Source: Escherichia coli (GTDB lineage Bacteria; Pseudomonadota; Gammaproteobacteria; Enterobacterales; Enterobacteriaceae). From it: DNA of 64,000 nt. The position numbers were made by a program. This document shows, piece by piece, positions 3,001 through 9,000 of the stretch; position 1 is the stretch's first letter; each line of letters begins with the position of its first letter. Location: assembly GCF_044324875.1 (NCBI RefSeq), contig NZ_CP172185.1; one strand, given 5' to 3'.

Positions 3001-6000
3001 TCCTGCAATCGCCTTCGCAGAGGAACTTCCTGATCCAGTAAAAGCGATTGAAAAACAGGGTATTACGATCATCAAAACGTTCGATGCCCCCGGAGGAATG
3101 AAAGGTTATCTCGGAAAGTATCAGGATATGGGCGTCACCATCTACCTGACTCCAGATGGTAAGCACGCTATCTCTGGTTACATGTACAACGAGAAAGGTG
3201 AAAACCTGAGTAACACACTTATCGAAAAAGAAATTTACGCACCAGCCGGACGCGAAATGTGGCAACGGATGGAACAATCCCACTGGCTCCTCGACGGTAA
3301 AAAAGACGCGCCGGTCATTGTTTACGTCTTCGCCGATCCGTTCTGCCCGTATTGTAAACAGTTCTGGCAGCAGGCGCGCCCGTGGGTAGATTCTGGCAAA
3401 GTGCAATTAAGAACATTGTTGGTTGGGGTTATCAAGCCAGAAAGCCCGGCGACAGCAGCGGCAATTCTTGCCTCCAAAGATCCCGCAAAAACCTGGCAAG
3501 AATATGAAGCCTCTGGTGGCAAGCTTAAGCTAAACGTGCCTGCAAACGTAAGTACAGAGCAAATGAAAGTGTTAAGCGACAACGAGAAACTGATGGACGA
3601 TCTGGGGGCAAATGTCACACCAGCTATCTATTACATGAGTAAGGAAAATACTCTGCAACAGGCCGTGGGGTTGCCCGATCAGAAAACGCTTAATATCATT
3701 ATGGGGAATAAATAAAATATAATTCATGGATGGTTGAAATATATCCCTGCTTTTCAACCATCCTAAAAAAGCATGAATTGCTCGCTCTACCCTAAGTGGC
3801 TGTGCTATTTTAGAAAAACTTAATCCTGAGTTAAGCAAAAAAACATAATACAAATAAATACAACAGCAACATTATTGATCAAGTGAATGATTTATAGAAG
3901 AGATAATATAACGGAGTATGTTATGGCGAATCTTTATGACCTAAAAAAATTTGATCTGAATTTACTGGTCATATTTGAGTGTATTTATCAACATCTCAGC
4001 ATTAGTAAAGCGGCAGAATCATTATATATAACGCCCTCTGCTGTTAGTCAGTCGTTACAACGTTTACGTGCGCAATTTAATGACCCGTTATTCATTCGCT
4101 CAGGGAAAGGTATCGCGCCGACTACGACAGGGTTAAATCTGCATCATCATCTTGAGAAAAATCTCAGAGGCATTGAACAAACGATCAATATTGTTAATAA
4201 GTCTGAGCTAAAGAAAAATTTTATTATCTACGGTCCTCAGCTTATTTCTTGTACTAATAACAACATGCTAATCCGCTGTCTTAGACAAGATACTTCAATC
4301 GATATAGAATGCCATGACATACTGCTTTCAGCTGAAAATGCCGAAGAACTGTTGGTTCAACGCAAAACTGACCTGGCAATTACACTACAACCAGTAATTA
4401 GCCGCTCTGTCATCTGCATGCCGTTACATACTATTCGCAATTCTCTTATATGTAGCAACAAACATCCTCGTATTACCGATACCAGTAACTATGAACAAAT
4501 TATCGCCGAAGAATTCACCTTGTTAATATCTAAATCAGCAGGGATTGACGAAATTCAAATGGACATAGATGAACGTTTTATGAACCGTAAAGTTTCATTT
4601 CGCAGTTCTTCTTTGTTGACGATAATTAATAGTATTTCTGTTACTGACTTATTGGGCATTGTGCCCACCGAACTGTACGATTTACATCGTGATTTTTTGA
4701 AGTTACAAGAGATAAAACTGGAACGACCACTTCCTGCGGTTAAACTTTATATTTCCTATAACAAGGCTTCGTTGAACAACCTTGTCTTCTCACGATTCAT
4801 AGATCGTTTAAATGATAGCTTCTGATTTATTACCACGGATAAATGTTATATTACGCATCAATTGATTCATTGTGTGAATATAAAATAATGTGCTCTATCT
4901 TGCTTCGTTTACCCTATAATTAGCGGATTCATCTCACGAGTCACCCCGTAACGTTCAGAGAGCGTTTTCAGATGTCTATTTATAAAATCCCGCTTCCACT
5001 GAATATTCTGGAAGCTGCAAAAGAACGTATTACCTGGACACTTAACACCCTACCCCGCGTCTGCGTTTCTTTTTCGGGTGGTAAAGATTCCGGATTAATG
5101 CTGCATCTGACCGCCGAACTTGCCCGACAAATGGGCAAAAAAATTTGTGTTTTATTTATCGACTGGGAAGCTCAGTTCTCTTGCACCATTAACTATGTTC
5201 AGTCCCTGCGCGAGTTGTACACCGATGTCATCGAAGAGTTTTACTGGGTTGCGCTCCCGCTTACAACGCAAAATTCCCTATCACAATACCAACCCGAATG
5301 GCAGTGCTGGGAACCTGATGTCGAATGGGTACGTCAGCCCCCGCAAGATGCGATAACCGATCCTGACTTTTTCTCCTTTTACCAGCCTGGCATGACCTTC
5401 GAACAATTTGTGCGTGAGTTTGCCGAATGGTTTTCGCAAAAACGTCCGGCGGCGATGATGATCGGCATCCGTGCGGATGAGTCCTACAACCGTTTTGTCG
5501 CCATCGCCAGTTTAAATAAACAACGTTTTGCCGATGATAAGCCCTGGACCACTGCCGCACCAGGCGGTCATAGCTGGTACATTTACCCCATCTACGACTG
5601 GAAAGTCGCTGATATCTGGACCTGGTATGCTAGCCATCAACGCCTCTGTAACCCACTGTATAATATAATGTATCAGGCAGGCGTTCCTCTACGTCATATG
5701 CGAATTTGCGAACCTTTTGGTCCGGAACAACGGCAAGGATTATGGCTCTATCACGTTATCGAACCGGATCGCTGGGCTGCTATGTGCGCACGAGTCAGCG
5801 GGGTAAAAAGTGGCGGCATTTACGCCGGACATGACAACCATTTTTATGGTCATCGGAAAATCCTCAAGCCCGAACATTTAGACTGGCAGGAGTATGCATT
5901 ATTGCTACTCAACAGCATGCCGGAGAAAACAGCTGAGCATTATCGCAATAAAATCGCCATTTATTTGCACTGGTATCAGAAAAAAGGCATCGAGGTTCCA

Positions 6001-9000
6001 CAAACCCAGCAAGGGGACATTGGCGCGAAAGATATCCCCTCCTGGCGGCGAATATGCAAAGTTTTACTCAATAACGATTACTGGTGTCGGGCATTATCAT
6101 TTAGCCCGACCAAAGCGAAGAACTATCAGCGTTATAACGAACGAATAAAAGGAAAACGTCAGGAATGGGGGATACTATGCAACAACGATTAACGCAGGAT
6201 TTAACCCAATTTCTCGCCAGCTTGCCGGAAGACGATCGCATCAAAGCGATTAATGAAATCCGCATGGCGATCCATCAGGTTAGCCCCTTTCGAGAAGAGC
6301 CAGTGGATTGCGTTCTGTGGGTTAAAAACAGCCAACTTATGCCTAATGATTACAACCCAAACAACGTGGCACCACCCGAAAAAAAACTGCTGAAAAAATC
6401 CATTGAAATAGATGGTTTTACCCAACCCATTGTGGTCACGCATACGGATAAAAATGCCCTGGAAATCGTGGATGGTTTTCACCGCCATGAAATTGGTAAA
6501 GGCTCATCATCGTTAAAATTACGCTTAAAAGGTTATTTGCCGGTGACCTGTCTGGAAGGTACGCGTAATCAACGCATCGCCGCGACTATTCGTCATAACC
6601 GCGCTCGTGGTCGCCACCAAATCACTGCCATGTCCGAAATTGTTCGTGAACTCAGCCAGTTGGGATGGGACGATCATAAAATCGGCAAAGAGCTGGGAAT
6701 GGACAGCGACGAAGTGCTGCGCCTGAAACAAATTAATGGCCTGCAAGAGTTGTTTGCCGACCGTCAATATTCCCGTGCCTGGACTGTCAAATAACTACAG
6801 CTGGCGCAGGCGTTCAGCTGCAGCCAGCAACGTCGATTCCTTCTTGGCAAAACAGAGACGAATCAGTTTATGGGGGAAGGGATCGGCGCAAAACACCGAC
6901 AGCGGAATCGCCGCTACACCGTGCTCCCGCGTCAGCCACTGGCAAAACTCAACGTCATCCAGCGAAGAAACCGCGCTGTAATCCACCAGCAAAAAGTAAG
7001 TGCCTTCGCACGGTAAAATCTCCAGCCGACTCTCACTTAAGGCATTCACCAGAATATCGCGTTTCTGGCGATAAAAGTCCGGTAACGCAAGATAATGCTC
7101 AGGTTCTGCACGTAGCATATCCGCAAGTGCCAGCTGTGCCGGGGTATTCACCGAAAAGGTCAGATACTGGTGTACCTTGCGAATTTCAGCGCTGATGGGC
7201 GCTGGCGCAACGCAATAACCCACTTTCCAGCCGGTCATATGATAGGTCTTGCCAAATGAAGAAACTGCCACCGCCCGCTCACGCAGCTGCGGATGCGCCA
7301 GCACGCTGGCATGGCCCTGTTGTGAAAAGTTGATGTGCTCGTAAACTTCATCGCTAATGACAAAAATCTCGTGCCCGCCGATCGCCTGCCACAAAGCGGC
7401 GAAATCAGCCTGCTGCCAGACAGTTGCACTGGGGTTATGCGGGGTGTTGAGGATCACCAGTCGGGTGCGCTCGCTTAACAATGCGGCAAATTCCTGCCAG
7501 TCCACGCGAAAATGCGGTGGTTGCAGTGCAATACGTTTCACTATTCCCCCCGAAAGCGCGATGGCGGGCGCGTAACTGTCATAGCTGGGATCAAAGCAGA
7601 TCACTTCATCACCATTGCGCACCAATGCGGTAATCGCTGCATATAACGCTTCCGTCGCCCCTGCCGTTACGGTGATATCGCTATCGGCATCCGGTTGATA
7701 GCCATACAGACGTTCCGTTTTCTGAGCAATCGCCTCGCGCAAGGCCTGCACGCCAGTCATAGGCGCGTATTGGTTTGCCCCCTGGGCAACGTGGTACGCC
7801 AGCCGCTCCTGCAAATAGCGCGGACCATCAAAATCAGGAAAGCCTTGTGACAGGTTAATCGCCTGGTGTTGCTGCGCCAGCGCGCTCATCTGGGTGAAAA
7901 TAGTGGTGCCAAGTTGTGGAAGTTTGCTTTGTGGAATCAGAGGGTTATTTGTCATTTTTTATTGTGCCTGACGAAGTTGTGTTGAAGGCACTATAACACG
8001 ATGCTAGCATTTGGCAATCAAGACGTTTAGATGTCTAAATAAAACAATAAGGACAACACAACATGCCTCACAATCCTATCCGCGTGGTCGTCGGCCCGGC
8101 TAACTACTTTTCACATCCAGGAAGTTTCAATCACCTGCACGATTTTTTCACTGATGAACAGCTTTCTCACGCGGTGTGGATCTACGGCGAACGCGCCATT
8201 GCTGCGGCGCAAACCAAACTTCCGCCAGCGTTTGAACGGCCAGGGGCAAAGCATATTTTGTTTCGCGGTCATTGCAGCGAAAGCGATGTACAACAACTGG
8301 CGGCTGACTCCGGTGACGACCGCAGCGTGGTGATTGGCGTCGGCGGCGGCGCACTGCTCGACACCGCGAAAGCCCTCGCCCGCCGTCTCGGTCTGCCGTT
8401 TGTTGCCGTTCCGACGATCGCCGCTACCTGCGCAGCCTGGACACCGCTCTCCGTCTGGTATAACGATGCCGGACAGGCGCTGCATTATGAGATTTTCGAC
8501 GACGCCAATTTTATGGTGCTGGTGGAACCGGAGATTATCCTCAACGCGCCGCAAGAATATCTGCTGGCGGGGATCGGTGACACGCTGGCGAAATGGTATG
8601 AAGCGGTGGTGCTGGCCCCGCAACCAGAAACGTTGCCGTTAACCGTGCGGCTGGGGATCAATAATGCGCAGGCCATTCGCGACGTATTGTTAAACAATAG
8701 CGAACAGGCGCTTGCCGATCAGCAAAATCAACAGTTAACGCAATCATTTTGCGATGTGGTGGATGCGATTATCGCCGGAGGTGGAATGGTCGGTGGTCTG
8801 GGCGATCGTTTTACGCGTGTGGCGGCGGCCCATGCCGTGCATAACGGTCTGACCGTGCTGCCGCAAACCGAGAAGTTTCTCCACGGCACCAAAGTCGCCT
8901 ACGGAATTCTGGTGCAAAGCGCCTTGCTGGGTCAGGATGATGTGCTGGCACAATTAACCGGGGCGTATCAGCGTTTTCATCTGCCGACTACGCTGGCGGA

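Follow-up and report, generated by a model that had tools for sequence, protein, structure and literature searches.

Organization of the ybdNM locus

The subject of this analysis is the citR-ybdN-ybdM locus (positions 3720-6794) of a 64,000-nucleotide stretch of DNA from Escherichia coli (NCBI RefSeq assembly GCF_044324875.1, contig NZ_CP172185.1), referred to below as the window. The locus is comprised of the regulator gene citR (ybdO) and of the overlapping, phage-derived genes ybdN and ybdM, which encode a PP-loop protein with the fold of phosphoadenosine phosphosulfate (PAPS) reductase and a ParB-like protein; the conserved association of these two proteins and a function proposed for them are described here. 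The following features are found at the locus, with positions counted from the first base of the window.

3716..3922, plus strand: dsbG-citR intergenic region (31.6% GC), containing the citR promoter and an H-NS-bound region
3923..4825, plus strand: citR (ybdO), LysR-type repressor, 300 amino acids from the RefSeq start; the reading frame is open from 3887 (3887-4825)
4826..4971, plus strand: citR-ybdN intergenic region (36.3% GC)
4972..6192, plus strand: ybdN, 406 amino acids, IbrA-family protein
6165..6192, plus strand: ybdN/ybdM overlap of 28 nt, the ybdM frame being -1 relative to ybdN
6165..6794, plus strand: ybdM, 209 amino acids, IbrB-family protein
6795..7955, minus strand: ybdL, methionine-oxo-acid transaminase, convergent with ybdM; it marks the module boundary and lies outside the module

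Between 2034 and 9151 the gene order is ahpC (minus strand), dsbG (plus), citR (plus), ybdN (plus), ybdM (plus), ybdL (minus) and ybdH/hcxA (plus), which is the order of E. coli K-12 in reversed orientation. An earlier note, made from the sequence alone, had placed the open reading frames, the 28-nt overlap and the motifs SGGKDS and DGFHR, and all of these positions were found to be exact; the LysR-type regulator that it described beside the pair is CitR, which scores 451.9 bits against the NCBIfam equivalog NF047710 (cut-off 400, residues 13-306). The overlap makes translational coupling of ybdN and ybdM likely. Sequence inspection revealed a second candidate start for ybdM, an ATG at 6177 (Met5) preceded by a better-placed Shine-Dalgarno sequence (GGGGGA), which would shorten the overlap to 16 nt, and either 6165 or 6177 may be the start. 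The stop codons of ybdM and of the convergent ybdL abut, the former ending at 6794 and the latter beginning at 6795, which leaves no intergenic base and no space for a terminator; ybdL-ybdM is listed as a convergent excludon, with overlapping transcripts (PMC12288877).

The module had been described in the same note as lying in distinctly AT-rich DNA. This holds for citR (36.6% GC; 0.35 at third codon positions, GC3) and for both intergenic regions, but not for ybdN (47.4%) and ybdM (47.0%; GC3 of the two 0.48-0.50), which are moderately below the flanking ybdL and ybdH (54.5-56.1%); the window mean is 51.8%. Since citR and its flanks have 32-37% GC and the pair approximately 47%, the strongly AT-rich element is the regulator and not the enzyme pair.

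Gene pairing and accessory genes across the family

Relatives of YbdN were searched with HMMER among 1.84 billion cluster representatives (clusters at 50% identity), yielding 1679 at E<=1e-3, and with tblastn, which detected them in 224 deposited genomes of phages (from Flavobacterium, Mycobacterium, Streptococcus, Arthrobacter, Bacillus and others). A single-sequence viral search returned one near-identical contig only, and the viral set was obtained with an alignment-based search. Gene neighbourhoods were compared for 167 loci, comprised of 80 from species-representative genomes, 80 from IMG/VR and annotated examples. A YbdM homologue was present on the same strand, within approximately 1 kb of the YbdN homologue, in 160 of the 167, and four of the seven remaining loci run to a contig end; the neighbourhood comparison, which the earlier note had proposed for the Enterobacteriaceae, shows the pairing to be kept beyond that family, in many phyla and in phages. 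The ybdN homologue directly precedes that of ybdM in 107 loci, with the two genes overlapping in 80 of these and separated by 0-15 nt in 25 (the commonest gaps being -4 and -28 nt), while the reverse order was found in 41 loci and a small gene between the two, in the ybdN-ybdM order, in 12. No convincing fusion of the two genes was found among long homologues; one homologue (P0176) ends in a GNAT-like region, but a frameshift artefact seems to account for its middle part. As far as gene distribution tells, YbdN and YbdM are an obligate unit, and mainly a phage- or prophage-carried module.

Three accessory functions accompany the pair. In 29 loci the pair is directly preceded by a gene for an SNF2-family helicase (phrog_62, 9e-62; Pfam SNF2-rel_dom, 2.6e-10), and an approximately 140-amino-acid protein of GNAT fold is encoded in 30, immediately upstream of the ybdN homologue in 20, between the two genes in four and fused to the helicase C-terminus in three; its assignment is based on Pfam Acetyltransf_1 (2.9e-12 for one member) and on profile matches to GNAT structures at 2.5e-4 and weaker. 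The third is a domain of approximately 135 amino acids, here called C1, which has no match in Pfam, PDB or PHROG. It occurs at about 60 loci, 21 of which encode it as a C-terminal extension of the ParB-like protein. The C1 consensus (...WKYSCEHNLTN..NRIAWLGQAA...) was read from the viral loci L116-L154 (e.g. L117, 6874-8001) and L091-L144, and where C1 is not fused, a gene of its own encodes it, placed between those for the ParB-like and the PP-loop protein. None of the SNF2, GNAT and C1 genes was found at the enterobacterial loci.

In Lactobacillus phage phiAQ113 and Streptococcus phage PY7 the early/replication region starts with the cassette, and in Pseudoalteromonas XCL1123, Arthrobacter Salgado and Mycobacterium Phlyer the cassette shortly precedes the packaging genes. 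In Phlyer (L169, 1069-5236), ibrA (gp4) and ibrB (gp5) overlap straight into the gene for the terminase large subunit, the small subunit being unannotated. Salgado (L007, 3284-6678) and Bacillus phage 055SW001 (L170, 3751-6118) each carry a more distant PAPS-reductase-like gene that has ParB-like genes on its flanks and shares an overlap with a small methyltransferase gene.

YbdN is a PP-loop protein devoid of conserved cysteines

5059-5673, plus strand: PAPS-reductase-fold PP-loop domain, residues 30-234 (Pfam PF01507 PAPS_reduct, 2.4e-13)
5680-6120, plus strand: helical DUF3440 domain, residues 237-383 (Pfam PF11922, 5.1e-23 / 2.2e-6)
5074-5091, 5161-5178, 5464-5484 and 5584-5601, plus strand: motifs SGGKDS, DWEAQF, GIRADES and YPIYDW, respectively

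Over its full length YbdN matches phrog_2302 (1.1e-76), and AlphaFold2, run on our own alignments, gave a confident model (pLDDT 91.7, pTM 0.89) that matches CysD (14.2), TilS (11.7), TtuA (10.9) and about 25 other PP-loop enzymes; no structural partner was found for the C-terminal helical domain. The PP-loop fold announced in the earlier note is thus backed by the Pfam domain, by the model and by an SGGxDS motif placed on a Rossmann-like alpha/beta fold. A sequence search of solved structures returned none close to YbdN or YbdM and distant profile matches only; the solved relatives closest to YbdN all bind an adenosine-5'-phospho-X compound, i.e. flavin adenine dinucleotide (FAD), adenosine phosphosulfate (APS) or PAPS, with CysD at E 7e-11.

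When 52 relatives with 27-84% identity to the query are aligned, the invariant columns are G37, K38 and S40 of the PP-loop, D64, E66, W113, W119, S171, D214 and Y230, and SGGKD[ST] is present in 141 of 160 family members. The columns of SGGKDS in these 52 sequences, and those of DGFHR in 107 relatives of YbdM, are invariant or nearly so, and neither motif is therefore a chance occurrence. No cysteine column is conserved among the 52: C246 is found in 29, C362 in 31 and C372 in 32, in no consistent combination. In CysH the catalytic cysteine sits in a C-terminal ECG[LI]H motif. This motif, searched for as ECG[LIV]H and as [EK]CG[LIVM]H, is present in none of the 160 family members, and the CysH models score far below their cut-offs on YbdN (TIGR02057, 34.1 vs 254.2 bits; NF002537, 33.3 vs 154; TIGR00434, 23.8 vs 165). 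The DndC model TIGR03183 reaches 21.7 bits against a cut-off of 290.4, and the CysD models fall short likewise.

An Fe-S or catalytic-cysteine enzyme was rejected, as neither a cysteine column nor a triad is conserved. Identity with DndC was rejected as well on the missing cysteines, the failing model, the neighbours (citR, ybdL and dsbG) and the lack of a Dnd-like cluster among conserved neighbours. The evidence points to adenylyl transfer: because the ATP PP-loop is intact and no redox or Fe-S cysteine is present, YbdN is predicted to carry out plain adenylyl transfer of the CysD or FAD-synthase type, and not sulfonucleotide reduction or DndC-type sulfur insertion. Judged from its residues, the product name 'PAPS reductase' is wrong in the catalytic sense, and YbdN is best explained as a cysteine-independent PP-loop ATP pyrophosphatase of the PAPS-reductase/CysD/FAD-synthase/DndC clade with an additional DUF3440 domain.

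YbdM combines a ParB/Srx fold with a near-invariant helix-turn-helix

6165-6281, plus strand: two-helix N-terminus, residues 1-39, found in enterobacteria only
6297-6554, plus strand: ParB/Srx-fold domain, residues 45-130, with NDYNPN at 6345-6362 and DGFHR at 6471-6485
6585-6617, plus strand: basic motif TIRHNRARGRH, standing in the place of the ParB CTP motif
6564-6752, plus strand: helix-turn-helix (HTH), residues 134-196, with GMDSDEVLRLKQ at 6696-6731

RefSeq names YbdM 'IbrB-like domain-containing protein'. On its own the protein matches Pfam ParB_N weakly (2.8e-4), but 57 of 107 family members match it at E<=1e-3, and a profile of the family retrieves crystal structures of ParB and Noc at approximately 1e-6. 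YbdM also matches the 'ParB-like' family phrog_2159 (4.5e-69) and, via its ParB domain, phrog_498 'DNA methyltransferase' (1.5e-10). The AlphaFold2 model (pLDDT 89.5, pTM 0.78) has KorB as its best structural match, DNA-binding domain included; the HTHs of VirB and of sigma region 4 match too, and SbnI, free serine kinase and sulfiredoxin, small-molecule kinases of the ParB/Srx fold, are among the best fold matches. Family profile, PHROGs and model together bear out the ParB/Srx fold assigned in the earlier note.

The 107 sequences of the family, from Proteobacteria, Bacteroidota, Firmicutes, Verrucomicrobiota, an Asgard metagenome-assembled genome and viral contigs, share 22 invariant columns, among them those of the nucleotide-pocket motifs and of the HTH helix GMDxDEVLRLKQ. 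Being near-invariant across phyla and phages, the HTH recognition region is too conserved for reading phage-specific operators. KorB, VirB and Noc carry the GERRxRA patch and ENxxR box of the ParB CTP clamp, which are replaced in YbdM by DGFHR and RHNRARGxH. A partition ParB/Spo0J CTPase was rejected, since YbdM, with 209 amino acids, ends after the HTH without the C-terminal dimerisation domain; the model TIGR00180 reaches 15.8 against a cut-off of 58.45, and no parA gene was found among the neighbours of the locus.

The enterobacterial locus and its silencing

Of 5426 complete E. coli genomes, 5422 carry the ybdNM locus. The synteny dsbG-citR-ybdN-ybdM-ybdL is kept in Citrobacter, Enterobacter, Pseudocitrobacter, Kluyvera and Superficieibacter. 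Close orthologues are on record for Salmonella and Klebsiella as well, and a CitR homologue beside the pair was found in Enterobacteriaceae loci only. Compared with the O104:H4 alleles, ybdN and ybdM show 94.6% and 96.8% nucleotide identity and ratios of non-synonymous to synonymous substitution rates (dN/dS) of 0.024 and 0.029, respectively, with 0.044 and 0.039 for the neighbouring core genes dsbG and ybdL. As identity and dN/dS resemble those of the core neighbours, ybdNM is old, vertically inherited and under strong purifying selection, and is neither a decaying remnant nor a recent island.

A different picture emerged for citR. Identity to the window over positions 3720-6794 is bimodal: it is >=95% in 1804 genomes and 80-90% in 3545. 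The citR gene is 79% identical to its O104:H4 allele (dS 2.69, dN/dS 0.025), compared with 95-97% (dS 0.08-0.28) for the neighbouring genes, and citR together with both intergenic regions (3650-5000) shows 69-83% nucleotide identity between allele classes. In E. coli, citR thus falls into two very old allele classes, and its divergence looks like allelic replacement or a long-maintained polymorphism under purifying selection, not relaxed or accelerated evolution. The values agree with the divergence of the region described by Higashi et al. 2016 (PMC4720273), although the emphasis of the interpretation given here differs from theirs. In that study the ybdO promoter was repressed by H-NS in strains K-12, SE11 and SE15, and the region was found to be unusually diverged.

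CitR itself was named as the repressor of ybdNM by Rodionova et al. 2022 (PMC9068703), who found a CitR peak upstream of citR by chromatin immunoprecipitation with exonuclease digestion (ChIP-exo). Deletion of citR raised ybdN by log2 5.5 (45-fold) and ybdM by log2 2.5, and genes of the cys regulon (cysDNC, cysJI and cysAWU, 4- to 7-fold up) and flagellar genes changed as well. The mutants were made in the BW25113 background and the paper is silent on a remaining resistance cassette, so that read-through from such a cassette into ybdNM is a caveat on these data. We retain the conclusion that ybdNM is nearly silent in E. coli through the adjacent repressor CitR, with citR in turn silenced by H-NS. 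In the urinary isolate E. coli 23AR0303 (NZ_CP195442.1; locus L172, 504-2183), an IS1 element splits citR and leaves ybdN and ybdM intact; this would be a natural derepressed strain if CitR truly represses ybdNM. In a 2022 proteomics study YbdM, called 'completely uncharacterized', was 29-fold up in MG1655 with a blaCTX-M-15 plasmid (PMC8764527).

Within the citR-ybdN intergenic region a TATAAT at 4915-4920 and a 5' leader (4931-4971) are conserved, and the part upstream is hyper-variable between alleles. Promoter and terminator scans of 3600-7000 gave no matches above the shuffled expectation, and for this reason no promoter beyond the conserved TATAAT is claimed. A perfect 12-bp inverted repeat, GGATGGTTGAAA N12 TTTCAACCATCC (3728-3739 / 3752-3763), begins 13 nt past the dsbG stop codon; it is kept in both citR allele classes and probably serves as the terminator hairpin of dsbG or as a binding site for a protein. 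Rfam and tRNA scans gave no match within the locus. Elsewhere in the window, and unrelated to the locus, Rfam and ARAGORN matched the small RNA STnc70 between ahpC and dsbG (2742-2835, minus strand), the small RNA ES036 (31173-31214, plus), a sok antitoxin RNA of a hok/sok-type locus (32159-32315, minus) and tRNA-Arg(TCT) (53767-53843, minus).

A related second pair is found in 26 of the 5426 E. coli genomes, with a PerC-family regulator, type VI secretion genes and a type I restriction-modification system as neighbours, and an island-borne paralogous pair in Citrobacter shows 58% (YbdN) and 54% (YbdM) protein identity. This island-borne second pair is probably IbrAB proper. In E. coli OkiPb01677 (L168, 6929-9137), the ibrA gene of the IbrAB-like island pair is frameshifted.

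Comparison with known systems

The first protein of both ybdNM and IbrA/IbrB is comprised of PAPS_reduct and DUF3440 domains and the second is ParB-like with DGFHR and an HTH, encoded in the same order by overlapping genes. The link to the prophage-borne IbrA/IbrB regulators drawn in the earlier note stands on these shared traits; the difference is that ybdNM has a fixed place in the core genome, away from any prophage or island, and a LysR repressor of its own. The IbrAB proteins of E. coli strain ECOR-9, encoded by the immunoglobulin-binding regulator genes, reportedly activate prophage eib genes. For IbrA/IbrB the SEED label 'coactivators of prophage gene expression' is used in published papers. 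The literature searched, including searches for DUF3440 and for PAPS reductase with ParB, contained no paper reporting a biochemical activity of YbdN/YbdM or IbrA/IbrB, in keeping with the earlier note's statement that no biochemical function is established.

In DndB/DndC of the DNA phosphorothioation system, a ParB-superfamily protein with DGxHR is likewise paired with a PAPS-reductase-fold PP-loop ATP pyrophosphatase, and the latter acts on DNA (PMC10853773). DndC, however, has a 4Fe-4S cluster on three cysteines plus a cysteine dyad and the partners DndA, DndD and DndE, whereas YbdN lacks both conserved cysteines and those partners. CysD and the PAPS domain of eukaryotic FAD synthase act on small molecules and have neither DUF3440 nor a ParB-like partner, and CysD in addition needs the GTPase CysN. 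In ParB-methyltransferase fusions, and in DpdB with DpdA (for the role of DpdB see PMC12839542), a ParB-fold module accompanies a DNA-modifying enzyme, as it would with YbdM; the partner of YbdM differs from these in being, by our prediction, a PP-loop adenylyl-transferring protein. Models from PADLOC-DB 2.0 gave partial, domain-level matches only (DndC 2.1e-5, BrxP 1.2e-4, MTase_II 8.4e-4), and none for CitR.

Proposed function and alternative explanations

The ybdN-ybdM pair is the chromosomal Enterobacteriaceae copy of the IbrA/IbrB module, and we tentatively read it as a silenced, adenylyl-transferring enzyme that a ParB-type protein targets to nucleic acid. YbdN and YbdM would be made together from their overlapping genes and most likely form one complex. 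YbdM would bind nucleic acid, probably DNA, via its HTH, with the ParB/Srx pocket serving as an NTP-dependent switch, and YbdN would transfer AMP from ATP onto an oxygen or phosphate acceptor of the bound nucleic acid, a modification or activation step of the DndC/CysD type without transfer of sulfur. In the phage versions the SNF2 helicase may provide access to the DNA and the GNAT-fold acyltransferase a further group transfer, and the approximately 135-amino-acid domain would be joined to the same machinery; 'co-activation of prophage genes' by IbrAB could then be a downstream consequence of modification. We favour a nucleic-acid modification function because of the precedents (DndB/DndC, DpdB/DpdA and the ParB-methyltransferases), because the neighbours include SNF2, GNAT and methyltransferase genes, and because the HTH is over-conserved. 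A bolder form of the proposal, that the IbrA/IbrB pair is the core of an undescribed sulfur-independent, adenylylation-driven nucleic-acid modification machinery, with the ParB/Srx-HTH protein bringing the PP-loop enzyme to DNA, the phage partners widening the chemistry and a minimal silenced copy domesticated in Enterobacteria, is rather doubtful at present.

The main rival to modification is that YbdM works as a VirB/KorB-like NTP-dependent DNA clamp, which by spreading outward from a site lifts silencing by H-NS or turns on late or prophage promoters, with YbdN as a regulatory or loading cofactor whose ATPase gates YbdM and no covalent modification taking place. The structural matches to KorB, VirB and the sigma region 4 HTHs argue for it, as do the location of the locus in H-NS-silenced DNA, the PerC-family regulator adjoining the island paralogue and the activation of prophage eib genes, the one phenotype reported for the family. 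We nevertheless consider it unlikely, since the canonical CTP-clamp motifs are replaced, the dimerisation domain is missing and TIGR00180 falls well short of its cut-off, and since a near-invariant recognition region is unusual in site-specific regulators; the invariant PP-loop active site and the SNF2 and GNAT partners would be left unexplained. The small-molecule ligands of YbdN's closest solved relatives, CysD among them, and the kinases of the ParB/Srx fold among the matches of YbdM (SbnI, free serine kinase and sulfiredoxin) are consistent with nucleotide chemistry of another kind, for which CysD-CysN, a PP-loop enzyme with an NTPase, is a precedent. YbdN would adenylylate a phosphorylated or sulfated metabolite in the manner of FAD synthase or ATP sulfurylase, giving a cofactor-like or signalling nucleotide, and YbdM would be its partner kinase/NTPase or a DNA-binding receptor for the product. 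The rise of cysDNC, cysJI and cysAWU when citR is deleted and ybdN is up 45-fold would fit, weakly, an interference with the APS/PAPS pool; but this shift is unreplicated and came alongside a large flagellar change that is typical of strain or batch effects. With the HTH of YbdM, the SNF2 partner and the position in phage replication modules all pointing to DNA, small-molecule chemistry is quite improbable.

Still less can be said for an anti-phage defence system, or for an accessory in ParB-type partition or terminase recognition. We regard this as very improbable, as there was no meaningful PADLOC match and no Dnd, BREX or ParA partner, the locus occupies a fixed core position in the Enterobacteriaceae and not a variable defence island, and the cassette is far from the packaging genes in the Lactobacillus and Streptococcus phages. 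That YbdN is a genuine PAPS reductase, i.e. a 'cysH' auxiliary metabolic gene, is hardly credible. The product name 'phosphoadenosine phosphosulfate reductase' given in RefSeq and phage annotations and the PAPS_reduct domain would suggest it, and the DUF3440 clade was counted as viral cysH in a preprint on organosulfur auxiliary metabolic genes (bioRxiv 10.1101/2021.01.05.425418); against it stand the lack of the CysH motif in all 160 members and of any conserved cysteine, the failing CysH models (34 vs 254 and 33 vs 154 bits), and an intact ATP PP-loop and obligate ParB-like partner that are both foreign to CysH. As the IbrA/YbdN family lacks the CysH cysteine motif and travels with a ParB-like gene, the 'cysH' label given to the DUF3440 clade in that preprint is probably wrong.

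Implications for the family and its hosts

The genes, the regulator CitR (2022), the H-NS silencing (2016) and the relationship to IbrA/IbrB were already in databases and papers, and the locus, being comprised of three named E. coli K-12 y-genes with a characterised regulator and known silencing, is itself not a discovery. Added here are the confirmation of both folds by structure prediction, the exclusion of CysH and DndC chemistry, the quantification of the obligate unit, and the SNF2, GNAT and unknown-domain modules. YbdN and YbdM are best treated together, as an enzyme-plus-targeting unit. The module is very widespread: 1679 clusters belong to it, 224 sequenced phages have it, and almost no genome of E. 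coli, Salmonella, Klebsiella or Enterobacter is without it. Its active sites have barely changed between phyla, and the SNF2- and GNAT-partnered phage versions point to DNA as the substrate. If the modification reading is true, many viral 'cysH' auxiliary metabolic genes would be genes for DNA modification and not for sulfur metabolism, and a new DNA or RNA modification or nucleotide signal, should one emerge, would matter for phage-host conflict and for the switching of prophage genes.

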